Virus record (IMG/VR): IMGVR_UViG_2537562195_000010
Direction: 5' to 3' (one strand)
DNA length: 53,150 bases
Source of the DNA: a virus
Taxonomy: Duplodnaviria; Heunggongvirae; Uroviricota; Caudoviricetes
Shown here: one piece after another, positions 3,894 through 20,056 of the stretch
Position numbering within the stretch: position 1 is the stretch's first letter
Layout of the letters: each line of letters opens with the position of its first letter
Notes under the pieces: generated by a model
The model's database searches: none
The model's input: only the letters and a program-made list of their open reading frames with translations
What the model was told of the DNA's origin: nothing
Position numbers and translations under genes: made by a program

Positions 3894-3988
3894 TGTGTTT
3901 AAACCTCATTACAGATTTCAGGGTGAACGAATCCCTGCCATTGCTGGCATTTTTAATCCGTTGGTATGGCGTTAATATGGCTGGCGGG

Positions 3989-4899: not shown

Positions 4900-5085
4900 A
4901 TGGAGGATAATATGCAAGTTGATATTATTAGCCCTGTAACTGATCCATATGCTTGCGCACATCAGGCTCTTCTGGCACTAATCAACGCCGGAAAAATTGA
5001 AAATTCCGCTATGTGCTTTGAAGAGTTGAAACAACTTGTGCGCTTGTATGAATATATTAAAAAACAATCACAAGATACGGCGTAA
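4900..5085 (+). CDS. Small hypothetical protein
   Basis: 61 aa ORF with strong RBS (GGAGG, 6 nt spacing) on the plus strand, embedded in an otherwise leftward operon. Confidence 0.4.
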   Translation: MEDNMQVDIISPVTDPYACAHQALLALINAGKIENSAMCFEELKQLVRLYEYIKKQSQDTA

Positions 5086-5165
5086 TATTTAAAATACTTT
5101 CTGTTATATGTGCCTGCTATAATGCTGGCCCATATTTCTAACCCCTCTATAAGAAAAACATATTA

Positions 5166-5579
5166 TTATGGCAATTTCTTCGGTAGCTCTTCAGAAAGCT
5201 GAGTTGTTTTAATTATGGTTTTTAAATAATCATCGCTTTCACATTTGAGTGATTCTATGGCAATCCAGATGCGGGCTTCGGTGCCTGCATTTGGTTCCAG
5301 TTGTTGTAGACGTTTTGCATCTTCCAGTAGTAAGGCGATAACGTGTTTCAGCTTCTCATCATTCGCTTGATTCTTATTTTCAGGCGAATGTTGTCCGCCG
5401 AATGGCCACTTTTCTTCGTACAGCCCGATAAAGGTTCGACGCACGTTACCGGATATATTATCGACGGTTTCTTTTTCTACGGTACTCAGGTCAAGAGTCG
5501 CCAGTTGAGAGCGAACTATATTCGCTGCCATTTCCTGGAATGGTACTGGTAAATCTTTAAATTCCATCGTCAACCTCAT
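5166..5579 (-). CDS. Hypothetical early-left protein (first gene downstream of the putative PL)
   Basis: 137 aa ORF on the repressor strand, ~320 nt downstream of the putative OL/PL; not Arg-rich, so not an obvious N-type antiterminator; no family recognised. Confidence 0.5.
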   Translation of the reverse strand: MRLTMEFKDLPVPFQEMAANIVRSQLATLDLSTVEKETVDNISGNVRRTFIGLYEEKWPFGGQHSPENKNQANDEKLKHVIALLLEDAKRLQQLEPNAGTEARIWIAIESLKCESDDYLKTIIKTTQLSEELPKKLP

Positions 5580-5913
5580 CAGTCAGTGTTTCTGGCTAAC
5601 CAGCGACGCGCGCCAGCTTCAGTTTTAAACGTTTTGCTTCTGGTATACGTCATCGCGGTAAACGTGCCGTCCAGGTTGGGGAATACTCCGCATACCAGAG
5701 ATTCGTTGTTGCCAAGATTGAGCGTATCCATGTTGACCTCATTTCCCCTTAACGCCGGGTCGCGGAACTAAAAACCTGCTGCGCTGTTATACAAAGTGTT
5801 CCCGCCGTCATGTTCATACGCCTCGGGCTGGCTACTTAACCCCTGACCACTGCCGGGTAACTCTAAGTATTGCCCTGCGTTCTGTGGGGCGGGGTGGGTT
5901 GGTATGAAATGAA

Positions 5914-5954
5914 GAATACCTGCGGGTATTCAAAAAGTAAATACCCACGGGTAA
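5914..5954. promoter_or_regulatory. Putative OL operator pair (two 16-bp palindromes AATACC-N4-GGTATT / AATACC-N4-GGTAAG)
   Basis: Seen directly: 5914-5929 'AATACCTGCGGGTATT' and 5939-5954 'AATACCCACGGGTAAG', just downstream of the repressor gene end, where a leftward promoter would sit. Confidence 0.45.
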
Positions 5955-5996
5955 GTTTTTTGGTGTATCTTGACTGGTGCTAGGTTGTTTGGTGGG

Positions 5997-6416
5997 CTAT
6001 GATGTGTTTCGTGCTTTCTTTTTGCTGATTTCTTCGTAGATCATATTGTAATATTGTTTTTTCTCTTCAAGAGTTTTTAATAAGTTATCCGCTTCGCTTT
6101 CTGGCAGTTCGTCCAAGAGATCTAAAAAAATACGTTGTCGTGGTGTTAGAACCCTTGTTTCATAATTGGAGGTTGTGTTCGTTGATGATGAAACGATACC
6201 ATCCATCCATCCCCGGGGTAACCCAAAGGATTCTTCGATAATCTCCACCATATCATCAGCGATCCGTTTTTTCCCTTTTTTCCCCTCTGGGTACAACATT
6301 CTTGATACATAAGAAGGCTCGCGGCCGATTTTTCTGGCCACGTTAACCGCTTTACCATCGCATTTCTCATCACGAATTTTGATGAGTTGCTGTCGTCTAA
6401 ATTCATATTTGTCCAT
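5997..6416 (-). CDS. Prophage repressor (CI-like HTH protein lacking an S24 peptidase domain)
   Basis: 139 aa; HTH-like segment 'VARKIGREPSYVSRML'; divergent from a Cro-like gene and flanked on both sides by related palindromic operators; no Ala-Gly/Ser-Lys autocleavage module recognisable. Confidence 0.7.
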   Translation of the reverse strand: MDKYEFRRQQLIKIRDEKCDGKAVNVARKIGREPSYVSRMLYPEGKKGKKRIADDMVEIIEESFGLPRGWMDGIVSSSTNTTSNYETRVLTPRQRIFLDLLDELPESEADNLLKTLEEKKQYYNMIYEEISKKKARNTS

Positions 6417-6434
6417 AGGTAAATAATAGAGGCG

Positions 6435-6491
6435 ATTACCGCAAGGTAAACAACCCAGGGGTATTGACTTTTGTTTACCTGTGGGTATTCT
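6435..6491. promoter_or_regulatory. Putative OR operators and PR promoter for the Cro-like gene
   Basis: Operator-like palindromes 6435-6450 'ATTACCGCAAGGTAAA' and 6475-6490 'TTTACCTGTGGGTATT' with the same half-site family as OL; -35 'TTGACT' at 6465-6470 overlapping the operators; Cro-like start at 6518. Confidence 0.45.
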
Positions 6492-6517
6492 TTTGTTGTG
6501 TTTACTAAGGAGTAGTT

Positions 6518-6799
6518 ATGGAAGAATTAAGAATATTTCTCAATTCTCTTTCGTCAGATGAACAGCGTATGTTTGCATGTGAGTGTGGTACTAGCATCGG
6601 TTATCTAAGAAAAGCATTGAGTAAAGGTCAAGTGTTAGGGGCATCGTTATGTGTCCTTATTGAGCGAGCCAGTAATGGTGAAGTTACACGTCAGCAACTA
6701 CGGCCTTTTGATTGGATGAACATTTGGCCCGAGCTGGAAGATACCCAAACGTTAACACAACCACTTTCCTGGAGCTTGATTCATGAAAATCAAGCATGA
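6518..6799 (+). CDS. Cro-like transcriptional regulator (YdaS-family HTH)
   Basis: 93 aa; '...GTSIGYLRKALSKG...LCVLIERASNGEVTRQQLRPFDW' matches the YdaS/Cro-like pattern (C..IERAT.G.V....LRPD.W); divergent from the repressor. Confidence 0.7.
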   Translation: MEELRIFLNSLSSDEQRMFACECGTSIGYLRKALSKGQVLGASLCVLIERASNGEVTRQQLRPFDWMNIWPELEDTQTLTQPLSWSLIHENQA

Positions 6800-7220
6800 A
6801 CACATCCGCATGGCAATGAATGCGTGGCTGCTTTATCCGAAGGTAGGGCGCAAAAAAATCGCTGATGATATAGCGACAGCATATTTTGAGCTTGAAATGA
6901 CTTATCCACCAATGCATGACACCTCTACGACAGAGGGTATTGGATTGAACATACAAAATATTTTTCGCTGGCTTGAAAAGGATACGCCTGATGCTGTTGA
7001 AAAAATTCAGGCACTAATTCCGGCTATCCTGACTGTTCTTCCGCGTGAACTGCGTTATCACCTCAGTATTTTTGACACTGTTGAGCGCCGTGCATTACTG
7101 GCGGCGCAGGAAGCGTTGAGCACGGCAATTGATGCACATGATGATGCAGTCCAGGCCGTTTACCGGAAAGCGTATTTCAGCGACAGCGGGTCATCCGGCG
7201 AGTCTGTTGTGGTGCATTGA
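6783..7220 (+). CDS. YdaT-like protein (possible CII-type regulator analogue)
   Basis: 145 aa ORF directly after the YdaS-like gene, the racR-ydaS-ydaT arrangement of Rac-type immunity regions; assignment by synteny and general resemblance only. Confidence 0.5.
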   Translation: MKIKHEHIRMAMNAWLLYPKVGRKKIADDIATAYFELEMTYPPMHDTSTTEGIGLNIQNIFRWLEKDTPDAVEKIQALIPAILTVLPRELRYHLSIFDTVERRALLAAQEALSTAIDAHDDAVQAVYRKAYFSDSGSSGESVVVH

Positions 7221-7306
7221 TATTTATGCCAGACCCCTGCTGATTCTGTTGATTGGGGAATCACAGAATATCACCAGAGGATGGTTCGTCACAAGATGAG
7301 GCAATT

Positions 7307-8317
7307 ATGGCCGCATTACCATACATGCAACTGTACATAGCTGATTACCTGGCTGACACCATGCATTTGTCCGCAGAGGAGCACGGCGCGTATTTGTTGT
7401 TGATGTTCAATTACTGGCAAACAGGGAAACCAATACCTAAAAACAGGCTGGCAAAAATTTCCCGTCTGACTAACGAGCGATGGGCTGATGTGGAACCATC
7501 CTTGCGGGAGTTTTTTTGCGATAACGGCGATGAATGGGTGCATCTTCGGATTGAGGAAGATCTGGCATCAGTCAGGGAAAAATTAACCAAAAAATCAGCC
7601 GCCGGAAAAGCATCTGTTCAGGCCAGAAGAAGCAGAAAGGAAGCATATGTTCAAACAAAACAAGAGAGAGATTTAACAGGCGTTCAAACAAATGTTGGTG
7701 TTGTGTTTGAACATGACGCAAACACAAAAGCAACTAATAAAGATACAGATCTAAAAGAATTAAACCCCACACATAACGTGCATGAACGCGAGAGTATTCC
7801 GACCGGTGAGTCGCATGGTGCGCCGTTGCAGACAGCCGAACCTGAATACCTGGACGGCCTGAGCGAACCGATCGGGAAATTTTCGATGACTACTGTCTGG
7901 CAGCCGTCGCCGGATTTTCGACAACGGGCAGCAGTGTGGGGTATGGCTCTGCCTGAGCCGGAATTTACACCTGCTGAGCTTGCCGCATTCCGGGATTACT
8001 GGATGGCGGAGGGGAAGGTTTTCACGCAGGTTCAGTGGGAGCAGAAATTTGCCCGCCACGTGCAGCACGTCAGGGCACAGGTAAAACCAGTCAGCAAGGG
8101 GGTAAGCCATGCAGCATCAGGTGGCACGGCATCACGGGCAGTTCAGGAAATCCGGGCAGCACGCGAACAGTGGGAACGTGACAACGGATTTATCAGCAAC
8201 GGAAACGGCCTGGAAGCTGTGGGAGCTTATGGGGGAGGTGTATTCGAACCGCTGGACTCAGAAGAACGGGGCCGCACCTTCGAAGCTCTGGATTGCCCAG
8301 ATTGGTGCGATGACTGA
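7307..8317 (+). CDS. Replication initiation protein (DUF1376 N-terminal domain plus DnaT-like C-terminal domain)
   Basis: ORF 7253..8317; likely start is the ATG at 7307 ('MAALPYMQLYIADYLADT...', RBS GAGG upstream). N-terminal 'YLLLMFNYWQTG' region is DUF1376-like; C-terminal half is DnaT/primosome-like; stop overlaps the next gene's start (ATGACTGA). Confidence 0.65.
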   Translation: MAALPYMQLYIADYLADTMHLSAEEHGAYLLLMFNYWQTGKPIPKNRLAKISRLTNERWADVEPSLREFFCDNGDEWVHLRIEEDLASVREKLTKKSAAGKASVQARRSRKEAYVQTKQERDLTGVQTNVGVVFEHDANTKATNKDTDLKELNPTHNVHERESIPTGESHGAPLQTAEPEYLDGLSEPIGKFSMTTVWQPSPDFRQRAAVWGMALPEPEFTPAELAAFRDYWMAEGKVFTQVQWEQKFARHVQHVRAQVKPVSKGVSHAASGGTASRAVQEIRAAREQWERDNGFISNGNGLEAVGAYGGGVFEPLDSEERGRTFEALDCPDWCDD

Positions 8318-8771
8318 ACAGCAAATCCGTCTGGTCTGCCGTCAGTGCATGGACCGCTGCCGGGCGGGTGAAACGTGGCCCCCGGACCTGGCTGAGTTTG
8401 TTGCGCTGATTTCGGAGAGTGGGGCAAATCCATTTGGTCTTACGGTGGATGCAGTGATGGAAGAGTACCGGCGCTGGCGCAATGAATCCTGGCGATACGA
8501 CGGGAGTGATAAATACCCGTGGCCACAGCCTGTGCTGTACCACATCTGCCTCGAAATGCGTACCAGAGGGATTGAGCGCCAGATGACGCAGGGTGAGTTA
8601 AAACGACTTGCGGAACGGCAACTGACGAAATGGGCAAAGCATGTTGGTAACGGGATGAGTGTTCCGCCAGTGCGACGACAACTGGAAGGGGCGAAACACC
8701 CGCAAGGGCCAACGCCAATTGAACGGCTGAAACAGGAATACGAACGCCGGAAGGCAGCTGGTTTTATTTGA
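8310..8771 (+). CDS. Lambda P-like replication protein (DnaB helicase loader)
   Basis: C-terminal region aligns by eye to lambda P ('WPPDLAEFVALI', 'YPWPQPVLYHICLEM', 'GELKRLAERQLTKWAKHV'). Start uncertain: 8310 (ATG overlapping the upstream stop), 8229 or 8109 are all in frame. Confidence 0.6.
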   Translation: MTEQQIRLVCRQCMDRCRAGETWPPDLAEFVALISESGANPFGLTVDAVMEEYRRWRNESWRYDGSDKYPWPQPVLYHICLEMRTRGIERQMTQGELKRLAERQLTKWAKHVGNGMSVPPVRRQLEGAKHPQGPTPIERLKQEYERRKAAGFI

Positions 8772-8786
8772 ATCTGGGAAACGATT

Positions 8787-9521
8787 TTGTCGGAGGAAAT
8801 TTTAATGGAAACCGTATTTGACGCACTGAAAGCACTGAAAAGAGCCTCTTCACAGGTAGTGGCGGCCCGCCTTGGAATCAGCCGTGAAGATGCGGTCAAC
8901 GAACTGTGGAAACTGAAGCGCCGTGGTGAAGCGGATAACAAGGGGTCGATGTGGTGGCTGACTCAGGCAGGTGAAAGTGAACCAGTGTCACCGGTACCGA
9001 AAGTGACAGCGCAAATGCTGACTGAGGCGATTGAACAACATGGCCCACAAACGGCAGATGAGCTGGCACTGATGTTCGGGATTACCTCCCGCCGGGCGAA
9101 TTCATCACTGGCCATGGCAATCAGCAAAGGGCGTCTGATTCGCGTGAATCAGGGCGGTAAATTTCGTTACTGCATACCGGGCGCTGATTTACCGGCAGAG
9201 CCGGAAGCTGCATCCGTAGCGGAAACAGATGGTAAAGCCTTTCCTCAGCCAGCAGGTGTTGCGTTACCAGTCCGGGAAACGACGACACAGGAAGAAATGA
9301 AAACAGAAATCGTGGAAGACATTGTGAAGTTACAGCCATCGGTCACCGAAACGAAAGCAGATGACCTGATTCTACCATCGCTGCATGTGGCTAACCGCGA
9401 GCTGCGCCGGGCAAAAGGTCAGGTTCAGAAGTGGGAGCGTGTCTGCGCCGCGCTGCGGGAGCTGAACAAGTGCCGGGATATTCTCCGGGATATTACCGCC
9501 ACCAGAGAACAGCAGCGGTGA
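8787..9521 (+). CDS. Hypothetical protein
   Basis: 244 aa ORF with good coding character; GTGA overlap with the next gene; no family recognised. Confidence 0.5.
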
Positions 9522-9835
9522 GTGGGTGGACGACGTGGTGCCGGGCTGAAATTCTGATACTCCGGCAGTGCGCGGGAACAATGAAGGTAAAAAGCATTGG
9601 CGCACTTATCGGACGAACTGAAGCGGCAGTGAGAACGAAGGCACGGGAGCTGGGCATCAGTATGATGTTACGTGGTGATTTTCACCCGTCGGCAAAATAT
9701 TCTCAGCGTGATATTGAGCTGGCGCGGCAACTGCATCAGAGAGGCATGCAAAGAAGGGAAATTGCCAGAAAATTAGGCATGCCGCTGCACATAGTGAATA
9801 ACTACGTTTATTTCGACAGGAGGGTTCAGGCGTGA
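9518..9835 (+). CDS. GcrA-like HTH DNA-binding protein
   Basis: GTG at 9518 overlaps the upstream stop (GTGA); '[16 protein letters not shown]...[22 protein letters not shown]' resembles the GcrA-type N-terminal HTH (W..E.L.L...G.S...IA..LG.T.NAV..K..RLG). Confidence 0.5.
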
Positions 9836-10137
9836 GGGTGAGAATTTATATCGCCGGTCCAATGACGGGATATGAAAATTTCAACCGCGAGGCATTTCAC
9901 AGAGCGGAAGAAGCACTTAAACGGGAAGGGCATACCGTTTTAAACCCGGCAGTACTTCCGGACGGGCTGACTCAGCCGCAGTACATGGATATTTGCATGG
10001 CAATGATTCGTTGTGTGGATGCGGTTTATATGCTGAATGGCTGGCAGCGGTCAGCGGGCGCTAAGGCAGAACTGGCACTGGCGGAGAAACTGGGACATGC
10101 GGTTATTTTCCAGGAGGCAACAAGTGAGCGAAATTAA
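9832..10137 (+). CDS. DUF4406 family protein (nucleoside 2-deoxyribosyltransferase-like fold)
   Basis: 101 aa; 'RIYIAGPMTGYENFNREAFHRAEEAL' N-terminus is characteristic of DUF4406; GTG start overlaps the upstream stop. Confidence 0.55.
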   Translation: MRVRIYIAGPMTGYENFNREAFHRAEEALKREGHTVLNPAVLPDGLTQPQYMDICMAMIRCVDAVYMLNGWQRSAGAKAELALAEKLGHAVIFQEATSERN

Positions 10138-10435
10138 AGAAATGCAGGTAGAACGTGATGAATATGGCTGCTGGACACATCCGGAGTATGAAAAGTTTTG
10201 CGCAGGTCGTGAATATATTTCCACCGAGGAATTTGACGCCTGGATGAAGGTAAATAATCTTCAGTGGACTATTTGCAGTATGGATGAAGATGATTTTAAT
10301 TCAGATGCAGATGACTCCGGTATTTCCGCCTGGGAACCGGAACGACCAGAGGGAGAAGGCTGGTTTATTGGCTCCATTCATGATACTGAAGATGGCCCGG
10401 TTTGTGTCTGGTTGCGAAACAAGGTAATGGCGTAG
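10124..10435 (+). CDS. Hypothetical acidic protein
   Basis: In-frame GTG at 10124 preceded by AGGAGG (6 nt spacing); the ORF-track start at 10037 lies inside the upstream gene and is probably an artefact. Confidence 0.45.
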   Translation: MSEIKEMQVERDEYGCWTHPEYEKFCAGREYISTEEFDAWMKVNNLQWTICSMDEDDFNSDADDSGISAWEPERPEGEGWFIGSIHDTEDGPVCVWLRNKVMA

Positions 10436-10762
10436 ATGAAAATAGAAAAAGCGAAAGTACAGCTCAGGATAATGCTTGCTGGTCCGGCTGCGAGTTATAT
10501 GACACATTCGCCAGCCATAAAAAAGGTCCTTGATGAACTGGAGGCCAAAGACAAGCGCATTGCAGAACTGGAGGCAAGGGAAGTCCAGTTACCGGTTGGT
10601 TATGAACTTCGCTATGGACACCCGATAAATGCTGATGAGCGCCATATTATGATACCTAAGGAAAATGGCAGCTGGCTTTATCTGGCTGACTTAGAACATG
10701 CACTACGTGTTGCTGGCATTCGCATCAAAGGAGAGCGATGTGGAAATAAAACCAGAAGATGA
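10436..10762 (+). CDS. Hypothetical protein
   Basis: 108 aa; ATG immediately follows the upstream stop (TAGATG). Confidence 0.5.
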   Translation: MKIEKAKVQLRIMLAGPAASYMTHSPAIKKVLDELEAKDKRIAELEAREVQLPVGYELRYGHPINADERHIMIPKENGSWLYLADLEHALRVAGIRIKGERCGNKTRR

Positions 10763-11096
10763 GTTAAGTAATATTGTTTTATTTCCGGTAAAAGAGGATG
10801 ACCCACGTAATCAGGTTAATTTTCTTTATGAGCCATCGGAAAGACCATACTGCCATCACGCCTCTGTCCGGGTTGACGAAAAAGAGCGTCAGGTCCGCTG
10901 TAAAATCTGCGGTTCAGTTGTGGAGCCGTTTGACTGGATGCTCTCTGTGGCGAAAAGAGAAACCAGACTGGCAGATGATGTAAAGCTATTGCGCCAGGAG
11001 GAACAGGAAAGGCGAAAAAATATAGAAAAGTTAATTCAGATTGAGCGTAACGCGAAAGCGCGGATACGCAGGGCGTCAAAATCCAGAACTGAATAA
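10740..11096 (+). CDS. Hypothetical protein with possible Cys4 zinc-ribbon
   Basis: GTG at 10740 with AGGAGA RBS; 'CHHASVRVDEKERQVRCKICGSVVEPFDW' has C..H...C..C spacing. Confidence 0.45.
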   Translation: MEIKPEDELSNIVLFPVKEDDPRNQVNFLYEPSERPYCHHASVRVDEKERQVRCKICGSVVEPFDWMLSVAKRETRLADDVKLLRQEEQERRKNIEKLIQIERNAKARIRRASKSRTE

Positions 11097-11191
11097 TTAA
11101 ATTCAGCACTGTTAAAAATTTAATCCTTAACCGGAGGGATTCCTGCACCCTCAGAACATAAGGAGACCGCCTGAAAGGGTGGTAATGAAAA

Positions 11192-11563
11192 ATGACTGAA
11201 TTAACCAAAGAGCAATTAATCAAGGAAGCCAAATTAAAAATAGCGGTTGCGAACTGTTACCCTAATTCAGAGATGGCCAGGGTAGAGGGAGAGCTATTCA
11301 AAATTGCACTGGCATCGCTGGAAGCAGAACCGATAGCGTGGGAATGCGGTGAAAACATAATCCTGTTTAACCCTGACACAGTTGAAGCATACGCAAAACG
11401 TGCGGAAATATCACCTAAACCACTATTCTCCGCGCCGCCAGCGCTGGTAGTGCCTGATAAGTTGCCGCGTGAATACAGAAACGGTTGGCCTCTTGCGTAT
11501 AGTGATTATGCTGAAGGCTGGAACGACTGCCGCGAAGCCATGCTTCAGGGAGATAAATCATGA
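11192..11563 (+). CDS. Hypothetical protein
   Basis: 123 aa ORF; ATGA overlap with the next gene. Confidence 0.5.
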   Translation: MTELTKEQLIKEAKLKIAVANCYPNSEMARVEGELFKIALASLEAEPIAWECGENIILFNPDTVEAYAKRAEISPKPLFSAPPALVVPDKLPREYRNGWPLAYSDYAEGWNDCREAMLQGDKS

Positions 11564-11913
11564 TTAATCGTATCAAGCTGGAGCACATCCTCGAATATGC
11601 CAGGCAGCAGAGGCATATTGGTCAGCATTGTAAAATTCCACCAGGAGATATGGTTGAAATCATGGAGATTGCCATGCGCAAGGCTGGCAATTCTCCGGTA
11701 ACTCCGGATGGTTGGATAAGCTGTAGTGAGCGAATGCCGCCAGTTGGTGTTGATGTACAACTGTTTGTGTCCTGCACGGGTGAACAGTTTACAGGTTTTA
11801 ACCTGGATAATACGGGTGACTTCCAGTATGCGCAGTGTTTCGGTGCGCCCATCGTGTGTGAAGCCACACACTGGATGCCGCTACCAGAACCGCCGAAGGA
11901 GGTGCGCCAATGA
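11560..11913 (+). CDS. DUF551 family phage protein
   Basis: C-terminal 'GWISCSERMPP...HWMPLPEPPKE' matches the DUF551 signature (W...E.LP ... WMPLPEPP). Confidence 0.6.
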   Translation: MINRIKLEHILEYARQQRHIGQHCKIPPGDMVEIMEIAMRKAGNSPVTPDGWISCSERMPPVGVDVQLFVSCTGEQFTGFNLDNTGDFQYAQCFGAPIVCEATHWMPLPEPPKEVRQ

Positions 11914-11993
11914 GCTGGCCTGAAGCCTTCTCAAATGTTGGTATTGCAATGGCGGTGGCGCTGGTTGTGTATTCGATTTGCCGCTGGGGATAA
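11910..11993 (+). CDS. Small hydrophobic peptide (27 aa), translationally coupled
   Basis: 'MSWPEAFSNVGIAMAVALVVYSICRWG'; ATG overlaps the DUF551 stop (ATGA); AAGGAGG 7 nt upstream; followed by a terminator. Below the 60-aa ORF-track threshold. Confidence 0.3.
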   Translation: MSWPEAFSNVGIAMAVALVVYSICRWG

Positions 11994-12006
11994 ATTGCTG
12001 AAAAAA

Positions 12007-12042
12007 GATCCCGACACACACATGAGTCGGGATCTTTGATTT
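12007..12042 (+). terminator. Rho-independent terminator
   Basis: Hairpin 'GATCCCGAC-(loop)-GTCGGGATC' followed by 'TTTGATTT'. Confidence 0.6.
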
Positions 12043-12117
12043 ATATATCCTACGAATCCGCCAGTAAGAGAGGGGGCGGACGGTTTATTCTAATACTGGA
12101 ATTATGTGGGGAAAAGT

Positions 12118-12417
12118 TTATAAGAAATCGGTTTCATAACTTTGTCCGCCATGATAAATACCTGCGATAAAGACTTTATTGCCATCAACGGCAAAAGCAA
12201 TAATCGTTCTGTGGCGGAAGTGAGTTACCCGCATTCCCTGTCGAATATCATCGCGTTTATTGCCCCGATGCGGGAATGTGGAAAACCCATCAAGATAATC
12301 AAGAAGTGCATTGGCATAATTGTCAGCAATGACGCTCCCTGCTTTCTCCGTTATATATCTGTGCAGGTTGATTATCTGCTGTTCGGCCTCAGGAGTAATG
12401 ATGACTTCATATGTCAT
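12118..12417 (-). CDS. ParE/RelE-superfamily toxin (type II TA toxin)
   Basis: 99 aa from 'MTYEVIITPEAEQQI...'; size, sequence character and position directly after a ParD-like gene fit ParE-family toxins. Confidence 0.7.
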   Translation of the reverse strand: MTYEVIITPEAEQQIINLHRYITEKAGSVIADNYANALLDYLDGFSTFPHRGNKRDDIRQGMRVTHFRHRTIIAFAVDGNKVFIAGIYHGGQSYETDFL

Positions 12418-12422
12418 GCAGA

Positions 12423-12680
12423 TTACTTCCCGGCTCGAATCGCGGCGCGAACCTGTGCAATGGAGCGTCCGTTGTTTGGGTTTTCGCGGATAGAATCGAG
12501 AGATGGGGCGGCTGAATGCGTTAACCACGCTTCGATTGCTTTATCGCGCTCATTCAGTGCGCGAAGCCCTTCACGAATGACCTCACTTTCTGAAGCATAG
12601 GCACCGGAAGCCACACGGGCGCGCACCATGTCAGCCATCTCGTTAGTTAATGTAACGCTGAATTGTTGGGTTGTACGCAT
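12423..12680 (-). CDS. ParD-like RHH antitoxin
   Basis: 85 aa from 'MRTTQQFSVTLTNEMADMVRARVASGAYASESEVIREGLRAL'; ribbon-helix-helix antitoxin pattern; 5-nt gap to the toxin gene. Confidence 0.7.
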   Translation of the reverse strand: MRTTQQFSVTLTNEMADMVRARVASGAYASESEVIREGLRALNERDKAIEAWLTHSAAPSLDSIRENPNNGRSIAQVRAAIRAGK

Positions 12681-12761
12681 GGTAAACCTCACGGAGTAGG
12701 ATAGAACACTATTCGATGATAGCACGCTTCCTGTTGACGACAACAGAAATCAGAGACAATA

Positions 12762-13094
12762 TTGCCGCACGCCAGCCTGAACAACTGGCACCTGCTGCGC
12801 CAGCAGAGACAACCGATGGCGCACGATACCAAATTACACAATTCGGATAACTCCGCCGCCCCTGCCAGCAGGCACGGGCGGCGTTCTCATGCATTCAAAT
12901 CTGACTGGTTCCAGCATGACCCATGCACTGAAGAACAGGCCGAATGGCTGATCCAGTGCTACCGCAGACGTGGTTACGAGTTTCAGAAAGATCTCAGCTT
13001 CGATCGTCGTCACTGGATAATCTCCGTCAGGCTCCCTTATTCCGAACGCCCACCGCGTCCGTCCCGCACATTCCAGCAGCGCATCTGGAGGTAA
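12762..13094 (+). CDS. Hypothetical protein (weak call)
   Basis: 110 aa ORF between the TA pair and the DUF968 gene; start codon uncertain (TTG at 12762 or ATG at 12816). Confidence 0.3.
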   Translation: MPHASLNNWHLLRQQRQPMAHDTKLHNSDNSAAPASRHGRRSHAFKSDWFQHDPCTEEQAEWLIQCYRRRGYEFQKDLSFDRRHWIISVRLPYSERPPRPSRTFQQRIWR

Positions 13095-13095
13095 C

Positions 13096-14145
13096 GTGCG
13101 GGTATTACTTCGACCTGTTCTGGTACCGGAACTCGGGATGGTGCTCCTTAAGCCGGGCCATGAATCAATGTCAGCATTCCATAACGGCAGAATATTGGTG
13201 GAGCCGGAACCGAAAAACATGCGTGGTCTGCCGTCCGGAGTCGTTCCTGCCGTTCGCCAGCCGCTGGCAGAGGATAAAACATTACTGCCATTTTTCAGCG
13301 ATGAGCGGGTTATTCGTGCTGCAGGTGGTGCAGGTGCACTGTCTGACTGGTTATTACGTCACGTGAAATCCTGTCAGTGGCCACACGGCGATTATCATCA
13401 CAGCGAAACCGTCATTCACCGTTACGGTACCGGCGCGATGGTGTTGTGCTGGCACTGTGACAACCAGCTGCGCGACCAGACATCAGAATCACTCGATCAA
13501 CTTGCTCAGCAGAATCTGGTTGCCTGGATGATTGACGTCATCCGTCACGCAATAAGCGGTACGCAGGAGAGGGAGTTATCGCTGGCCGAATTATCCTGGT
13601 GGGCGGCCTGCAATCAGGTGGTGGATGCACTACCTGAGGCAGTAGCGCGTTGTTCGCTGGGATTACCAGCGGAAAAAATCCGCTCCGTATACCGTGAGAG
13701 TGACATCGTACCGGGAGAACAGACAGCCATCAGCATACTGAAGCAGCGCACAAAAAATATTGCGCTGCCACTTCACGTCCACCAGCAACAAAATCCACCA
13801 CAGAAAAAAACGGTTGTCAGTATCGCCGTTGATCCGGAGTCTCCTGAATCGTTCATGAGGCGGCCTAAACGTCGCCGTTGGGTTAATGAGAAATACACGC
13901 GCTGGGTAAAGACACAGCCGTGTGCGTGTTGTGGTAAGCCAGCTGACGATCCGCATCACCTGATTGGTCATGGTCAGGGGGGAGTGGGAACAAAGGCCCA
14001 CGATATTTTCACGCTACCGTTGTGCCGGGAGCACCACAACGAACTTCATGCAGACCCGCTGAAGTTTGAGAAAAAGTACGGCTCTCAGATTGAGTTAATT
14101 TTTCGTTTTCTTGATCACGCCTTTGCGACTGGCGTGCTCGGGTAA
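13096..14145 (+). CDS. DUF968 domain protein (YdfU-like)
   Basis: 349 aa; GTG start with GGAGG at 5 nt; C-terminal 'CACCGKPADDPHHLIGHGQGGVGTKAHDIFTLPLCREHHNELH' zinc/His-rich motif typical of DUF968 proteins. Confidence 0.7.
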   Translation: MRVLLRPVLVPELGMVLLKPGHESMSAFHNGRILVEPEPKNMRGLPSGVVPAVRQPLAEDKTLLPFFSDERVIRAAGGAGALSDWLLRHVKSCQWPHGDYHHSETVIHRYGTGAMVLCWHCDNQLRDQTSESLDQLAQQNLVAWMIDVIRHAISGTQERELSLAELSWWAACNQVVDALPEAVARCSLGLPAEKIRSVYRESDIVPGEQTAISILKQRTKNIALPLHVHQQQNPPQKKTVVSIAVDPESPESFMRRPKRRRWVNEKYTRWVKTQPCACCGKPADDPHHLIGHGQGGVGTKAHDIFTLPLCREHHNELHADPLKFEKKYGSQIELIFRFLDHAFATGVLG

Positions 14146-14157
14146 AAGAGGTGACTG

Positions 14158-14520
14158 ATGCTCATAGAGTTGGTTTTACCTTACCCGCCGACGGTGAACA
14201 CTTACTGGCGACGCCGTGGCAGCACATATTTTGTATCAAAAGCCGGGGAGCGTTATCGCCGGGCAGTGGCGCTTATTGTTCGCCAGCAGCGACTGAAATT
14301 AAGCCTGTCCGGACGGCTGGCAATAAAAATTATTGCAGAGCCACCGGATAAGCGCCGCCGTGACCTGGACAATATTCTGAAAGCACCGCTGGATGCGCTG
14401 ACGCACGCGGGGTTGTTAATGGACGATGAGCAGTTTGATGAAATCAATATTGTACGTGGCAAGCCAGTATCTGGTGGACGGCTGGAGATAAGAATTACAG
14501 AGGTGGGTGTGCATGAATAA
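14158..14520 (+). CDS. rusA: Crossover junction endodeoxyribonuclease RusA (Holliday junction resolvase)
   Basis: 120 aa; 'PDKRRRDLDNILKAPLDALTHAGLLMDDEQ...GGRLEIRITE' matches the RusA catalytic region. Confidence 0.9.
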   Translation: MLIELVLPYPPTVNTYWRRRGSTYFVSKAGERYRRAVALIVRQQRLKLSLSGRLAIKIIAEPPDKRRRDLDNILKAPLDALTHAGLLMDDEQFDEINIVRGKPVSGGRLEIRITEVGVHE

Positions 14521-15178
14521 CCAGTATTTACAGTTTGTTCGTGAGCAACTCATGATTGCCACTGCGGATCTTAGTGGGTCGACAAAAGGCCAGCTGGAAG
14601 TCTGGCAGGAAAATGCCCTGTTCGATACAGGGCGTTGCAGACGCAAAAAAATTCGTTACCGCGATGAGGTAACCGGAAAAATGATCACGCGGGATAATCC
14701 CCCGATCCCGGGTAAACAATCACTGGCGAAAGGCTCATCAATTGCCCTGGTCAGTCCGGTTGAGTTTTCGACATCATCATGGCGACGCGCCGTTCTGTCT
14801 CTTGAAGAACATCATAAAGCCTGGCTGCTGTGGTGTTACAGCGGTAGCATTTGCTGGGAGCATCAGATCGCGATAACGCAGTGGGCGTGGACTGAATTTA
14901 ATGCTCAATCCGGTACCAGAAAAATTGCAGGAAAAACTCTGGTGCGCCTGAAGACGTTGATCTGGTTGGCGGCGCAGGCGGTAAAAGCTGAGCTTTTTGG
15001 TGGGGAAGGTTACGAATACCAGGAACTGGCGTTACTGGTGGGAGTAACAACCAAAAACTGGTCCAAGACATTTACTGGTCACTGGGTTGCAATGAAACAC
15101 ATTTTTCATCGGCTGGATAGTGAAGCTTTATTGTTGGTGGAGGGAACACGTTCAAAACAAAAGGCGGCATTTTCATAG
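14513..15178 (+). CDS. Late-gene antitermination protein Q
   Basis: 221 aa; phage antiterminator Q family by sequence character and position (after rusA, before the late promoter/terminator); ATG 14513 with GAGGTG RBS, overlapping the rusA stop. Confidence 0.8.
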   Translation: MNNQYLQFVREQLMIATADLSGSTKGQLEVWQENALFDTGRCRRKKIRYRDEVTGKMITRDNPPIPGKQSLAKGSSIALVSPVEFSTSSWRRAVLSLEEHHKAWLLWCYSGSICWEHQIAITQWAWTEFNAQSGTRKIAGKTLVRLKTLIWLAAQAVKAELFGGEGYEYQELALLVGVTTKNWSKTFTGHWVAMKHIFHRLDSEALLLVEGTRSKQKAAFS

Positions 15179-15185
15179 CAAAGTA

Positions 15186-15214
15186 TTGCAAAAGTAGATA
15201 AAAAGGCATATATT
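15186..15214 (+). promoter_or_regulatory. Putative late promoter PR' (TTGCAA-17-TATATT)
   Basis: Seen directly: -35 TTGCAA (15186-15191), 17-bp spacer, -10 TATATT (15209-15214), directly downstream of Q. Confidence 0.5.
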
Positions 15215-15264
15215 TCGTGTAAATCTGATATTTTGCCGTTATTATACGTGATGGCAAAGCCACT

Positions 15265-15290
15265 AAAACCCGTGACCGAGCGGGTTTTTT
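15265..15290 (+). terminator. tR'-like rho-independent terminator
   Basis: Hairpin 'AAAACCCG-TGACCGAG-CGGGTTTT' followed by T-run, ~50 nt downstream of the putative PR'. Confidence 0.6.
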
Positions 15291-15431
15291 ACCCCCCAAA
15301 AAATGGCATAGACATTAAACGTGATGACGATTGTGCCAATACTTTCTCCATCAATGACGCCCCTTGACTGCATGGAATCCAATTTGTTATGTAATGTGTG
15401 TTGATATTTTTGAGTTGTTAATGGTGTTACT

Positions 15432-16145
15432 ATGGATGACAGTGCTCTGCTCAGAAACTCTTCACTTTTTGTTGCTTATATGGGCTGTCTCGGATGGGGG
15501 AGCGCTTATTTCTATGGATGGGGTACTTCATTTTACTATGGCTTTCCATGGTGGGTTGTCGGGGCTGGTGTCGATGATGTAGCACGAAGTTTGTTTTATG
15601 CTGTGACAGTTATTGTTATATTCCTTATTGGATGGGGAGTTGGTATTGTTTTCTTTTTGGGCATAAAACAAAAGCGCAATATACAAAATTTGAGTTTTAT
15701 CCGGCTTTTTCTCGCGATATTGCTGCTTTTTATTCCACCTGTTCTGGAGTTTTCTGTAATTCATCAGCATGTTGAGCCAGATGTACTGATTTTCTGTGTT
15801 CTTGCTGCCTTTGCAATCACGCTTTTTGTCAGGTCTGGAAGAAGACTTGTTTCAGTCAAATGTTTTTCGGAAATGTCTGTTATTCGCCATCACCGAATTG
15901 AGTTCATGATGGCTGGGTTTATGATTTATTTCTGGGCATTCTCTCTTATTGCCGGTTGGTACAAACCACAGTTTAAGAGGGAATATCAGACGGTCCACTA
16001 TGAGAATGTATGGTATTACATTATTGCGCGCTATGATGATCGTCTGGTGTTATCGAAATCATACAGGAGTGGGGGTAAGAAATTCGTTATATTTAATAGC
16101 GGAAATATTAATGATTTTGAAATTAATACTGTCAGAGTACGTTAA
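15432..16145 (+). CDS. Hypothetical multi-pass membrane protein (AT-rich moron)
   Basis: 237 aa; at least four hydrophobic helices (e.g. 'LFYAVTVIVIFLIGWGVGIVFFLGI') plus a C-terminal soluble ~70 aa; markedly AT-rich relative to flanking phage genes; no clear RBS. Confidence 0.5.
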   Translation: MDDSALLRNSSLFVAYMGCLGWGSAYFYGWGTSFYYGFPWWVVGAGVDDVARSLFYAVTVIVIFLIGWGVGIVFFLGIKQKRNIQNLSFIRLFLAILLLFIPPVLEFSVIHQHVEPDVLIFCVLAAFAITLFVRSGRRLVSVKCFSEMSVIRHHRIEFMMAGFMIYFWAFSLIAGWYKPQFKREYQTVHYENVWYYIIARYDDRLVLSKSYRSGGKKFVIFNSGNINDFEINTVRVR

Positions 16146-16318
16146 AATTTCCTGAGTAATAAAGATTTTACTGCCCGGCATTGAGCGGCTTTTTTATGCC
16201 AGAAAAATGGTGCAGTACATAAAATGTGCAGGTGGTTATTAATACCGGTCTTTCAGCTTGCTGGCTTTTTTGACAAGAGTTATTGGTGTGTCACGTTAAC
16301 CGGAAAAGGGAAAAAGAC

Positions 16319-16516
16319 ATGCTGAAACAGCAGGATATGACAGAAACCGCCAGAGCAGTTTTTAATGAATTAAGTGCCACCGAACCGGCGACAGTCGGGG
16401 AGATTGCACAGAATACGTACCTTTCACGCGAACGCTGCCAGCTAATACTGACCCAGCTTGTTATGGCGGGTCTGGCAGACTATCAGTTTGGTTGTTACAG
16501 ACGCCTTCAGTCCTGA
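16319..16516 (+). CDS. Small putative DNA-binding protein (HTH-like)
   Basis: 66 aa from 'MLKQQDMTETARAVFNELSATEPATVGEIAQNTYLSRERCQLILTQL'; ends inside a terminator hairpin. Confidence 0.45.
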   Translation: MLKQQDMTETARAVFNELSATEPATVGEIAQNTYLSRERCQLILTQLVMAGLADYQFGCYRRLQS

Positions 16517-16528
16517 AGGCTTTTTTAT
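16503..16528 (+). terminator. Rho-independent terminator
   Basis: 'GCCTTCAG-TC-CTGAAGGC' stem followed by TTTTTTATTT. Confidence 0.5.
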
Positions 16529-16667
16529 TTGTGGTAAATGGGCGGCTGGTGGGTGTTAGGGGCACTCACCAGCCATCTGCTCATGCGTTGGGGTCACAAG
16601 CAAACCTCAGGCCCATCTGCTTTGCGCAAAAGCGGTATGAGCCTATCAGAGACAGGCTTAATGATCC

Positions 16668-17726
16668 ATGTTTAATACTGTAAAAATATCCAGTTGTGAG
16701 TTAATCAACGCCGACTGCCTGGAATTTATCCGGTCGTTACCCGAAAATTCTGTTGACCTGATAGTCACGGACCCGCCGTACTTTAAAGTGAAGCCTGAGG
16801 GCTGGGATAACCAGTGGACGGGTGATGAGGATTACCTGAAATGGCTGGACCAGTGTCTGGCGCAGTTCTGGCGGGTGCTGAAACCTGCCGGAAGTCTTTA
16901 CCTGTTCCGTGGCCATCGCCTGGCGTCTGACATTGAAATCATGATGCGTGAACGCTTCAGTGTGCTGAACCATATTATCTGGGCGAAGCCGTCCGGACGC
17001 TGGAACGGGTGCAACAAGGAAAGCCTGAGGGCGTATTTCCCCGCCACAGAGCGCATTCTGTTCGCGGAACACTATCAGGGGCCGTATCGCCCGAAAGATG
17101 ATGGCTATGAGGCGAAGGGCAGGGCACTGAAACAGCATGTGATGGCTCCGCTGATTGCTTACTTTCGTGATGCGCGTGCTGCCCTGGGGATAACGGCAAA
17201 ACAGATAGTGGATGCCACAGGAAAGAAAAACATGGTGTCGCACTGGTTCAGTGCCAGTCAGTGGCAGCTACCGAACGAAAGCGATTATCTGAAATTACAG
17301 GCGCTGTTTGCCCGGGTGGCAGAAGAGAAGCATCAGCGGGGTGAACTGGAAAAGCCCCACCACCAGCTGCTGGAGACGTATACTTCACTGAACCGGCAGT
17401 ATGCGGAACTGCAGAGTGAATATAAGCATCTGCGGCGGTATTTTGGCGTGACGGCGCAGGTGCCGTACACGGATGTGTGGACGCATAAACCGGTGCAGTA
17501 CTATCCCGGGAAACATCCGTGCGAAAAACCGGCAGAAATGCTGCAGCAGATAATCAGTGCGAGCAGTCGTCCGGGTGACCTGGTTGCAGATTTCTTCATG
17601 GGGTCGGGTTCGACAGTCAAAGCCGCGATGGCGCTGGGGCGTCGTGCAACTGGCGTTGAGCTGGAGACTGAACGTTTTGAGCAGACGGTCAGGGAAGTAC
17701 AGGATTTAGTCAGTCAGAATGGATGA
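16668..17726 (+). CDS. DNA methyltransferase (beta-class N6-adenine/N4-cytosine, DPPY motif)
   Basis: 352 aa; motif IV 'DLIVTDPPY' near the N-terminus and motif I 'DFFMGSGST' near the C-terminus (beta-class order); no adjacent restriction endonuclease, so likely an orphan phage methylase. Confidence 0.85.
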   Translation: MFNTVKISSCELINADCLEFIRSLPENSVDLIVTDPPYFKVKPEGWDNQWTGDEDYLKWLDQCLAQFWRVLKPAGSLYLFRGHRLASDIEIMMRERFSVLNHIIWAKPSGRWNGCNKESLRAYFPATERILFAEHYQGPYRPKDDGYEAKGRALKQHVMAPLIAYFRDARAALGITAKQIVDATGKKNMVSHWFSASQWQLPNESDYLKLQALFARVAEEKHQRGELEKPHHQLLETYTSLNRQYAELQSEYKHLRRYFGVTAQVPYTDVWTHKPVQYYPGKHPCEKPAEMLQQIISASSRPGDLVADFFMGSGSTVKAAMALGRRATGVELETERFEQTVREVQDLVSQNG

Positions 17727-17766
17727 TATTGCAGGATTAGTTACGTACCGTTATTATCATGCGCCC

Positions 17767-17842
17767 GGCCCTTTAGCTCAGTGGTGAGAGCGAGCGACTC
17801 ATAATCGCCAGGTCGCTGGTTCAAATCCAGCAAGGGCCACCA
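17767..17842 (+). tRNA. tRNA with CAU anticodon (Met or lysidine-modified Ile2)
   Basis: Hand-folded cloverleaf: acceptor GGCCCTT/AAGGGCC, D-arm GCTC...GAGC, anticodon loop CTCATAA, T-arm GCTGG-TTCAAAT-CCAGC, encoded CCA. Confidence 0.85.
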
Positions 17843-17850
17843 TATCCATA

Positions 17851-17927
17851 CCGCCATTAGCTCATCGGGATAGAGCGCCAGCCTTCGAAGCTGGCTGCGC
17901 GGGGTTCGAGTCCTCGATGGCGGTCCA
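17851..17927 (+). tRNA. tRNA-Arg (anticodon UCG)
   Basis: Hand-folded cloverleaf: acceptor CCGCCAT/ATGGCGG, anticodon stem CCAGC/GCTGG with loop CTTCGAA, T-loop TTCGAGT, encoded CCA. Confidence 0.85.
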
Positions 17928-18205
17928 TTATCAGCATTATGCGTTGTTGGTTCTGATGAGTGAATCATTGTCTTTTGAGCAACAGGCTATCATATAAGAT
18001 AGCCTCAGACTTCCTTGTTTATTCTCGCCGGATGCTTCGTAGATATTTGCAGGCATCTGTATGCAGGGGTATTATTGCGGCATATATCATCCGGAAAAAT
18101 AAAAACTACATGCTGATCCGGAGATGATAGTTACAAGTCCTCCCGGATCCCGCATATTTACTATATTTTATAGATAATTGTTCTTGTTAATATGGAGATG
18201 GATAA

Positions 18206-18634
18206 ATGTATTGCCGTGCTGTACCGGTTCTTGTTTTGATATTAGCCAGTCTGACAACTGGCTGCACAAAAGATGTATCGACAAATAATTATGATGCTTC
18301 TCTGTATCACTCAGATAAATTAATAAAGTCACAAAATTTGAGCTCATCGGAACGTAGCCCTGATGCCAGTGAAGAAATCCGGCAGTATGCCATTCAGGTC
18401 AGGAAAGCCATAGAAGAACAGTTAAAGGATGCGAGTAAGTATTCAGGAAAAGAGTGTTCACTGAGAATGTATATGGCCCCGAATGGTCTTCTGCTACAGG
18501 TTAAAAGAGAAAGCGGTGATCCCGATTTATGTCGTGAAGCGATGAATGCAGTAAAGAATGCTGATATACCATCACCACCGTCTTCAGGAGTATATAAAGC
18601 ATTTAGAAATGGCGTGCTGGATTTTAAACTCTGA
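18206..18634 (+). CDS. Lipoprotein with TolA C-terminal (domain III)-like domain
   Basis: 142 aa; signal peptide with lipobox-like 'LTTGC'; C-terminal 'YAIQVRKAIEEQLKDASKYSGKECSLRMYMAPNGLLLQVKRESGDPDLCREAMNAVKNADIPSPPSSGVYKAFRNGVLDFKL' closely parallels the E. coli TolA C-terminus as I recall it (...GDPALC...KIPKPPSQAVYEVFKNAPLDFKP); AT-rich moron. Confidence 0.7.
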   Translation: MYCRAVPVLVLILASLTTGCTKDVSTNNYDASLYHSDKLIKSQNLSSSERSPDASEEIRQYAIQVRKAIEEQLKDASKYSGKECSLRMYMAPNGLLLQVKRESGDPDLCREAMNAVKNADIPSPPSSGVYKAFRNGVLDFKL

Positions 18635-19330: not shown

Positions 19331-20056
19331 ATGGATGTTGCCTGCTCTGTGGTCCTGATTCGCTATCCGATAGATATTTTTCTTGAAAAAGAAAAAGTTT
19401 CACTCGATGCCGGAAGTGTTATGCTTGTTGCCAGAAATATAAGAGGGCTTTTCTGTGCTTATGCCGACAGAGTGAAAATGGCAGATATAAGTAACAGCGT
19501 CGTCAATCAGTATCTGGAAAGGGAGTGTGAACTGACGGAGTATACACCGACAAAAATTCCTCTTTATTTGATGTCTGATATTTACAATACGGAACTGGCG
19601 GAGGCTTTAATAACCCAGCATAGTGAATCCAGTGATACTTTGAAGGATTTCTCTGTTATAACCGCATTTTCATGTATCTCCTTATTTGCAACAGACAGAC
19701 GTCTGCCATTATTTTTGTCCGGTGCTGTAAATAATATCAGCTGTAAAGTAAGGGCTATAATTCAGACCGACATATCGGCAGGCTGGATGCTTGGTGTGAT
19801 TGCATTACAATTGCATATGAGCGAAAGCTTGTTGAAGCGAAAACTTAAGGATGAAGGTTATAGCTTTAGTCGGTTGTTGCTGGAGGAGCGAATGCGTGTT
19901 GCTGTTAATCTTGTATGTTTCCAGCGAGAGTGTGGACAAGCGATAGCGGAAAAATGTGGTTACTCAAGTAAGTCCTACTTCATTTCTGTATTTCACCAGT
20001 ATTATGGTGCACCACCTGAGAGCTATGCATATTTGCAGAAAGCAGACGTTATCTGA
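19331..20056 (+). CDS. AraC/XylS-family transcriptional regulator (prophage-encoded)
   Basis: 241 aa; C-terminal double-HTH region '...LHMSESLLKRKLKDEGYSFSRLLLEERMRVAVNLV...IAEKCGYSSKSYFISVFHQYYGAPP' typical of AraC-type regulators; AT-rich island. Confidence 0.75.
   Translation: MDVACSVVLIRYPIDIFLEKEKVSLDAGSVMLVARNIRGLFCAYADRVKMADISNSVVNQYLERECELTEYTPTKIPLYLMSDIYNTELAEALITQHSESSDTLKDFSVITAFSCISLFATDRRLPLFLSGAVNNISCKVRAIIQTDISAGWMLGVIALQLHMSESLLKRKLKDEGYSFSRLLLEERMRVAVNLVCFQRECGQAIAEKCGYSSKSYFISVFHQYYGAPPESYAYLQKADVI

Follow-up and report, generated by a model that had tools for sequence, protein, structure and literature searches.

An STM1630-family membrane-protein cassette downstream of tR' in a Shiga-toxin-phage-like prophage of Escherichia coli

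Why does a gene for a multi-pass membrane protein, far richer in AT than its surroundings, sit directly behind the late terminator of a lambdoid prophage, and does it form a unit with the small helix-turn-helix (HTH) gene that follows it? The question is raised by a 53,150-nucleotide stretch of DNA from a tailed virus (Caudoviricetes; IMG/VR record IMGVR_UViG_2537562195_000010; the whole stretch is called the window here), which is a Stx-phage-like (Shiga-toxin-type) lambdoid prophage of Escherichia coli. The window opens with the integrase end of the prophage; in E. coli RM10042 the prophage adjoins ompW. Segment 15200-16600 of the window is matched at 99.9% in E. coli O43, O104:H21, O22:H8 and further strains. 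The 237-codon open reading frame (ORF) in that segment encodes an inner-membrane protein of the STM1630 family; it travels in a self-contained accessory cassette, a moron, that occupies positions 15360-16165 in a variable slot just 3' of the terminator tR', and the small gene downstream belongs to the phage and not to the cassette. We hold what is said here of the identity, of the anatomy and of the small gene, taken together, with high confidence. The family (STM1630, PF27470, PHROG 1521) was already known and is functionally uncharacterised; what is new here is the context, namely the boundaries of the cassette, the fossil tR' beside it, its recurrence after three types of the antiterminator Q, and the return of the small gene to the backbone of the late leader. 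As to what the cassette does, we lean towards lysogenic conversion, by a moron whose product works on the periplasmic side of the inner membrane, as the best explanation of the locus as a whole.

Identity and architecture of the membrane protein

The RefSeq coding sequence at this place is WP_000342737.1, named 'STM1630 family protein'. The PHROG 1521 profile (annotated 'unknown function') matches residues 17-237 with its positions 1-221 of 222 (E 2.1e-85), and in precomputed Pfam annotation PF27470.1, which bears the label 'TfpB', is carried by all close homologues, including proteins 94-96% identical to this one. The Salmonella homologue, STM1630 (SL1344_1560; 238 aa), is 47% identical over 100% of the length and is encoded beside a Sif + Lipase_GDSL protein (SseJ). 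Profiles, homology to STM1630 and a shared architecture were the three features tested for membership of the family, and all of them agree, so that the sequence-only reading of this DNA, which recognised no family, has to be amended. Local copies of Pfam and NCBIfam contained no model matching the membrane protein, a Pfam scan of all 58 family members gave scattered chance hits only, and a sequence search of solved structures with the family profile returned nothing at E ≤ 10.

The family is narrow: 75 proteins reached E ≤ 0.001 when 1.84 billion representatives were searched exhaustively with the profile, and five related loci came up when one genome per species was searched with the alignment of close homologues. 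Its members come from Escherichia, Shigella, Salmonella, Citrobacter, Klebsiella, Enterobacter, Cronobacter and Yersinia, with distant ones (20-30% identity) in the Neisseriaceae and Pasteurellaceae, and even at 13-30% identity the homologue alignments stay collinear from end to end. The ratio of nonsynonymous to synonymous substitution rates (dN/dS) is 0.09-0.20 in comparisons with seven homologues taken from other contexts, and the ORF is therefore a real gene under purifying selection. It is also conspicuous by composition: in 300-nt windows the GC content is 0.37-0.42 over 15150-16350 and 0.48-0.57 on either side, the ORF itself having 39.5% against the ~50-56% of its surroundings, and copies in every context are AT-rich (31-40% GC).

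Hydropathy analysis gives four strong hydrophobic segments and a weaker, aromatic- and glycine-rich segment at the N-terminus. AlphaFold with a shallow alignment of 36 sequences reached a predicted local distance difference test score (pLDDT) of 61, and that model was not used; once distant members had been added, AlphaFold2 with 58 sequences gave a mean pLDDT of 80.4 and a predicted template modelling score of 0.75. The model has five long helices (residues 10-36, 47-78, 89-111, 116-138 and 155-181), short helices within 142-153, and a five-stranded C-terminal beta domain (184-235). This is the architecture common to the family: an aromatic/glycine-rich N-terminal pair of transmembrane (TM) helices, three more TM helices, and a beta domain of ~55 residues. 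The N-terminus and loops 2 and 4 are predicted to be cytoplasmic, and the beta domain periplasmic, because lysine and arginine are in excess in those three places over the 58 homologues. Conservation peaks from TM1 through loop 1 to the start of TM2 and again from the end of TM5 through the linker into the first half of the beta domain, and it is lowest in the predicted cytoplasmic loops; with the topology just given, the best-conserved surface would lie on the periplasmic side of the inner membrane. An internal 24-nt tandem duplication, still visible in the DNA, encodes the eight-residue repeats GWGSAYFY and GWGTSFYY, which fall in the best-conserved, aromatic/glycine-rich stretch. Fold searches with the model found no match to known proteins, the top Foldseek hits being MscS-type channels at E > 0.7.

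What the sequence-only reading had observed of this ORF holds: its place right after a tR'-like terminator, its GC content far below that of the flanks, and the multi-pass membrane protein, for which both the hydropathy segments and the five-helix model speak. Of the checks it had proposed, profile searches yielded a family and structure searches no fold match to known proteins, and defence-system prediction found no PADLOC model that matches the membrane protein.

The cassette, its slot and the small winged-helix gene

Similarity to the copies on enterotoxigenic E. coli (ETEC) plasmids, in Escherichia albertii and in UPEC957C starts ~75 nt before the start codon, at CCCCTTGAC, and similarity across unrelated contexts stops ~20 nt past the stop codon. 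The best-conserved upstream blocks in the phage, ETEC plasmid and E. albertii copies are TTGAC(T/G) and TTTGTTATG(T/A)A; in the window they give TTGACT and TATGTA with an 18-nt spacer that ends in TG-N (TGT), plausibly an extended -10 promoter that would be active on its own. Because of these boundaries and conserved blocks we take the mobile unit to be a promoter and an ORF without a terminator of its own.

The slot into which this unit has gone is that of the phage late leader (Table 1). The Q gene upstream is annotated as 'bacteriophage antitermination protein Q' in the records that match 15200-16600 at 99.9%. The pR'-like sequence stands just after Q and ~50 nt before the terminator, a spacing that fits the lambdoid pR'/tR' layout and suggests pR' function. 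The tR'-like terminator folds, over 46 nt, to -15.4 kcal/mol (z -3.3), and none of 200 shuffles was equally stable. What is unusual is that tR' and ~35 nt downstream of it recur on the far side of the membrane gene as a diverged direct repeat, the two copies aligning locally with a score of 22 where 2000 shuffles had a mean of 7.6 and a maximum of 15. The right copy has a homologue in Stx2a phages, where tR' is intact, and similarity to Stx phages begins at ~16183-16185. Its hairpin has decayed, with a fold (-6.7 kcal/mol, z -0.33) no better than those of shuffles, and the stem is disrupted in M11957 and OkiPb01695 too. It is likely that the hairpin decayed because the inserted cassette had separated this copy from pR'. 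The first strong terminator 3' of the cassette is the one after the small gene.

Morons, in the sense of Hendrix and colleagues, are accessory gene units in phage genomes. Of the features expected of one, the cassette has a base composition unlike that of its flanks and is present or absent at the same site among close relatives, and the AT-rich moron in late read-through position that had been proposed from the letters alone is thus borne out. For a promoter of its own that would work in the repressed prophage, the candidate is the conserved TTGACT-18-TATGTA block. A terminator of its own was not found, the next hairpin being the decayed tR' of the recipient. The cassette resembles the other morons between Q and the lysis genes (stx, and the slot ORFs of phiP27 and mEp460), which likewise vary in presence at one site, deviate in composition and are so placed as to permit both read-through from pR' and independent expression. 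It differs from them in that its promoter is a predicted one, in that it lacks a terminator, and in that its product is a membrane protein and not a secreted toxin.

The small gene is another matter. It had been described as a 66-residue HTH-like ORF with its own terminator; the HTH-like character and the terminator stand, and the length does not, since the protein has 65 residues from its ATG (or 77 from an upstream TTG). Its Pfam hits are below the gathering scores (TrmB at 6e-4, 20.0 bits against a cut-off of 25.6; HTH_24, 17.8 against 21.9; MarR_2, 17.4 against 27; DprA_WH also), and the orthologue in phiP27 is called 'TrmB family transcriptional regulator' by RefSeq. The sequence is winged-helix-like, as in TrmB and MarR regulators, although at 65 residues it is shorter than is typical of them. 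A search of solved structures by sequence gave a chance hit only, and PADLOC-DB gave weak hits only, to parts of larger proteins. In SfV, mEp460, phiP27, Stx2a phages and the window, it is the small gene that is conserved after Q and tR', with the methylase gene following ~150 nt later, and it stands just 5' of a DNA methyltransferase in five of the six phage types sampled (M11957 has another HTH gene in place of the methylase). The slot between tR' and the small gene, by contrast, changes from phage to phage: in SfV and Stx2a phages it is empty, tR' leading straight to the small gene, and elsewhere it contains a 138-aa ORF (mEp460) or a GIY-YIG nuclease (phiP27). Because the slot varies while the small gene stays, we assign the small gene to the backbone of the late leader; it is not the regulator of the cassette.

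A small gene just 5' of a DNA methyltransferase recalls the controller (C) proteins of restriction-modification systems. The C proteins, however, are of the Xre HTH type and come with a restriction enzyme, and the annotation next to the methylase here contains no gene for one. The interval from the small gene to the methylase also contains a conserved hairpin (20 predicted pairs, consensus -29.6 kcal/mol), whose left arm is invariant in seven phages, including mEp460, where the small protein is 54% identical, and M11957; across the seven, the only changes are one-sided and preserve the pair (G-U). It has neither a T run nor an Rfam match; an RNA element is one possible reading of it, a protein-binding palindrome another.

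Table 1. Features of the late leader and adjoining region, by position in the window
Feature	Position	Strand	Evidence or detail
DUF968	13096-14145		
RusA	14158-14520		
Late antiterminator Q, 223 aa	14507-15178	+	PF06323 Phage_antiter_Q, E 2.5e-89
pR'-like late promoter, TTGCAA-17-TATATT	15186-15214	+	Consensus scan, 9/12 matches
tR'-like intrinsic terminator	15265-15294	+	RNA fold; 9-bp stem (15265-15288), 6-nt loop, T6
Left copy of diverged direct repeat (tR' + ~35 nt downstream)	15269-15324	+	Repeat search and local alignment
Promoter-like block of the cassette	15360-15395	+	Cross-context conservation; TTGACT (15364-15369), TATGTA (15388-15393)
STM1630-family (PF27470 / PHROG 1521) inner-membrane protein, 237 aa, predicted five TM helices + C-terminal beta domain	15432-16145	+	
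Internal 24-nt tandem duplication	15492-15539	+	Repeat search, alignments
Right repeat copy, decayed second tR'	16174-16229	+	Alignment with Stx2a phage EH2201 and phage 1720a-02
Winged-helix protein, 65 aa, PHROG 331	16319-16516	+	Sub-threshold Pfam hits, phage comparison
Intrinsic terminator, overlaps small-gene stop codon	16503-16530	+	Scan: 7 pairs (stem 16503-16520), 4 GC, T run; fold; inverted repeat
Conserved hairpin between small gene and methylase	16538-16584	+	Predicted pairing across phages
Orphan N6/N4 DNA methyltransferase	16668-17726	+	PF01555, E 1.4e-42
Two tRNAs	17767-17927		

Occurrence of the family and the role proposed for it

At least 80% of the membrane gene is found in 460 of 5,426 complete E. 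coli genomes, and part of it in 1,197. In phages it recurs directly after three different Q types: after the 223-aa PF06323 Q in the window and in M11957, after a 273-aa antiterminator in UPEC957C and OkiPb01695, and after a Q82-like Q in phage 434 and O157:H7 FRIK944, where a DUF3927 protein follows. Outside this setting the family appears as a 76%-identical allele on ETEC plasmids, ~870 bp from eltA and divergent from eltAB; as a 56%-identical allele on 106 Shigella invasion plasmids (pINV), amid insertion sequence (IS) elements; as STM1630 adjoining sseJ in Salmonella; as a distant member beside umuDC, where a P2-like prophage ends; and as orphan genes between housekeeping genes in Neisseria and Avibacterium. 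No conserved partner gene and no pilin gene were seen in the neighbourhoods of the loci inspected.

Some of these loci merit description in their own right. In M11957 the order is Q, membrane gene, small gene, HTH gene, tRNAs, stx2d, and the copy of the cassette is 98% identical; it lies between Q/tR' and stx2d (2501-3214 and 4810 onward in that locus) and thus inside the Shiga toxin 2d transcription unit. In the ETEC plasmid loci the membrane gene is at 4001-4714 and eltAB at 1987-3134; the several plasmids concerned also carry STb, and the protein cluster of this allele is recorded on 908 contigs. The homologue in phage 434 (CPT_434_68) and O157:H7 (WP_001302581.1), annotated merely as 'putative membrane protein', belongs to the same family (55.7% identity, tblastn) and likewise comes right after Q and a terminator and ahead of the lysis genes, but its Q is Q82-like and a DUF3927/TciB protein takes the place of the winged-helix gene and the methylase. 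That lineage carries envelope-related cargo on both sides of Q (1666-2625 and 3974-4961 in the phage 434 locus), with the lipid A deacylase LpxR 5' of Q and, 3' of it, the STM1630-family protein and the DUF3927/TciB small membrane protein.

The Salmonella gene is the one member for which there are experimental data. It is, like the gene here, a full-length homologue with the same TM and C-terminal architecture, an AT-rich single gene without an operon partner, and a resident of horizontally acquired DNA beside virulence genes, sseJ and steB; it is unlike it in occupying a chromosomal islet and not a prophage late leader. According to the account of STM1630 in Text S1 of PMC6785131, the gene lies between steB and sseJ, is bound by H-NS, is expressed in medium that induces Salmonella pathogenicity island 2 (SPI-2) and inside macrophages, and is silent in ST313 owing to two single-nucleotide polymorphisms in the -10 box; signature-tagged mutants were attenuated in calves and chicks, and deletion in strain 4/74 led to more intramacrophage replication (same account). 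It is listed together with SPI-2 genes in transcription profiling of avirulent regulator mutants (PMC2639726). Taken together, these data point to host-associated expression. Hypermotility, which a screen had reported (PMC4219756), was considered as a clue to function and dropped, since it is not among the changes reported for clean deletions (PMC4534456).

It is from this pattern that we arrive at lysogenic conversion: an AT-rich, promoter-bearing cassette has been captured repeatedly on virulence-associated mobile DNA, the family is restricted to animal-associated bacteria, and its conserved surface points, by prediction, to the periplasmic side. In the lysogen the cassette would be transcribed from its own sigma-70-type promoter, and since the gene is AT-rich we propose that this promoter is probably silenced by H-NS and switched on by cues from the host, in line with the reports on STM1630 of Salmonella. 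Lysogen transcripts would run through the decayed copy of tR' into the small gene and stop at its terminator, while during lytic growth the polymerase modified by Q would transcribe the cassette from pR'. The most speculative step is the last, in which the product would change how the envelope of the lysogen functions in the animal host and would not serve virion production; this physiological role we put forward only tentatively, and would ourselves sooner bet against it than for it.

Several points weigh against the account just given. The proposed promoter (-10 TATGTA) escaped the strict consensus scan, and the mapped promoter region of Salmonella STM1630 is not homologous to the E. coli upstream block that contains it. 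The topology and the location of the beta domain derive solely from the positive-inside rule and the model. The experimental data in the family all come from Salmonella STM1630, and the phenotypes are themselves weak or inconsistent: the deletion had no effect in D23580 (PMC6785131), and hypermotility, as said, is not among the phenotypes of the clean deletions (PMC4534456). The distant members in Neisseriaceae and Pasteurellaceae are orphans between housekeeping genes, and the association with toxin and effector loci may merely reflect shared residence on mobile DNA.

The main rival of lysogenic conversion is superinfection exclusion or immunity, in which the protein would block injection of DNA by other phages, or neutralise membrane-targeting bacteriocins, at the periplasmic face. 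Exclusion proteins commonly take the form of a polytopic inner-membrane protein encoded by a prophage moron, as in P22 SieA and SieB, T4 Imm and HK97 gp15, all of which resemble the product here in being small and in coming from accessory genes. The spread of the gene over prophages and plasmids would suit such a role, as would a conserved surface facing the periplasm, and two lipoprotein-like ORFs with TolA and TonB C-terminal domains in the same prophage (described below) could also interfere with import. We nevertheless hold exclusion to be the less likely of the two, though a serious contender. None of 5,027 PADLOC models matches the membrane protein (E ≤ 1), PHROG 1521 carries no function, and in neither resource nor in the fold searches does the protein resemble the known exclusion proteins; the family is also stably chromosomal outside phages, its orphan copies sitting between housekeeping genes and not in defence islands, and STM1630 shares its regulation with the intracellular virulence programme and has effects in infection models. 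A function in the late phase of the phage itself, such as lysis timing, membrane energetics or the release of virions or toxin, with expression essentially confined to Q-dependent read-through, would explain why phages with three Q types have this gene as the first ORF behind pR'/tR' and why it lies upstream of stx2d in M11957, and the MscS-type channels among the Foldseek hits also combine TM helices with a beta domain. Those hits are not significant, though, the gene is absent from most related phages that keep the rest of the late leader, and it occurs on plasmids and in chromosomal islets where there are no phage genes, so that we regard a late function as improbable.

The remaining two proposals concern the partners of the protein. 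That the 65-aa winged-helix protein is a dedicated regulator of the membrane effector, as the sequence-only reading had it, draws on the adjacency and common orientation of the two genes, on the decayed terminator between them, which makes co-transcription to 16503-16530 plausible in this phage, and on the 179 E. coli genomes that share the whole arrangement. That figure has to be set beside the ~2,200 E. coli genomes in which part of the query has a match, for the most part the stretch with the small gene. Each gene is moreover found without the other in other phages and replicons: the small gene in Stx2a phages, SfV, phiP27 and mEp460, and the membrane gene in phage 434, O157:H7, UPEC957C, ETEC plasmids, Shigella pINV and Salmonella. 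Phage records with the small gene number 55 against three with the membrane gene, and the similarity of the cassette ends before the small gene is reached. The two-gene system is thus largely refuted by the comparative data, and we give it very little credence. Least probable of all is a role as a type IV pilus accessory protein, which the Pfam label 'TfpB' invites together with a resemblance to TfpY/FimB-like proteins. The design of these is similar: TM helices follow a short N-terminus in the cytoplasm and lead to a globular C-terminal domain, reported to be periplasmic in TfpY (PMC11841053) and predicted to be so here. Distant members of the family occur in Neisseriaceae and Pasteurellaceae, and both of these make type IV pili. 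But no pilin or pilus gene adjoins the family at any locus inspected, no detectable sequence relationship to TfpY or FimB was shown, and TfpY-like proteins have three TM helices and a periplasmic domain of mixed beta-sheet/beta-alpha-beta structure (PMC11841053), whereas the protein here is modelled with five TM helices and an all-beta domain of five strands. None of the uses of 'TfpB' found in the literature, for type IVb pili, for a PilB-like ATPase of Acinetobacter, which is unrelated, and for chemistry acronyms, accounts for the Pfam name, and nothing found here ties the family to pili. Moraxella bovis probably has an ORF called tfpB next to its pilin genes.

The rest of the prophage and the meaning of the cassette

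Elsewhere in the prophage, an Rfam search over 14500-18500 matched the two tRNAs only. Following them, exactly at the stxAB site of Stx-converting relatives, is an ORF (18206-18634, +) with a signal peptide, a lipobox-like motif and a TolA C-terminal domain (PF06519, E 3.9e-23), conceivably serving as a decoy against filamentous phages or colicins that depend on Tol. Another small ORF of lipoprotein-like type (MKMKRNLPLIILLSSLVMGC...; 28874-29200, +), just after the lysis genes, has a TonB C-terminal domain (PF03544, E 5e-15), and the prophage therefore holds the C-terminal domains of both envelope energy transducers. The late region also encodes, 3' of the TolA-like ORF, an AraC-family regulator (19331-20056, +; HTH_18, E 2.7e-12). 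The early region is mosaic: over 4916-12813 only short patches match the RM10042 prophage, otherwise 97-99% identical, and the hokD/relBE segment of RM10042 may for that reason be absent from the window.

The slot at tR' shows how such a phage accepts cargo, in this case leaving a fossil second tR' behind, and the reassignment of the small gene corrects a tempting mis-annotation as the regulator of that cargo. It is tempting to go further and to regard the STM1630/PF27470 cassette as an unrecognised class of lysogenic-conversion or virulence-accessory factor, a single gene with its own promoter, silenced by H-NS and captured again and again beside toxins and effectors, although we judge so broad a claim to be a long shot. 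If it were true, the captures would be those beside Stx2d, LT, SseJ/SteB and on the Shigella invasion plasmid, and the five-helix product, its beta domain in the periplasm, would remodel the envelope while in the host, for instance in vesicle or toxin release, in membrane homeostasis or in resistance to host membrane stress. The family sits at notable sites, among them an stx2d prophage, eltAB, two SPI-2 effector genes, the Shigella invasion plasmid and phage 434, and once a role is defined for it, be it in the host or against rival phages, thousands of pathogen genomes would gain an annotation in one stroke.

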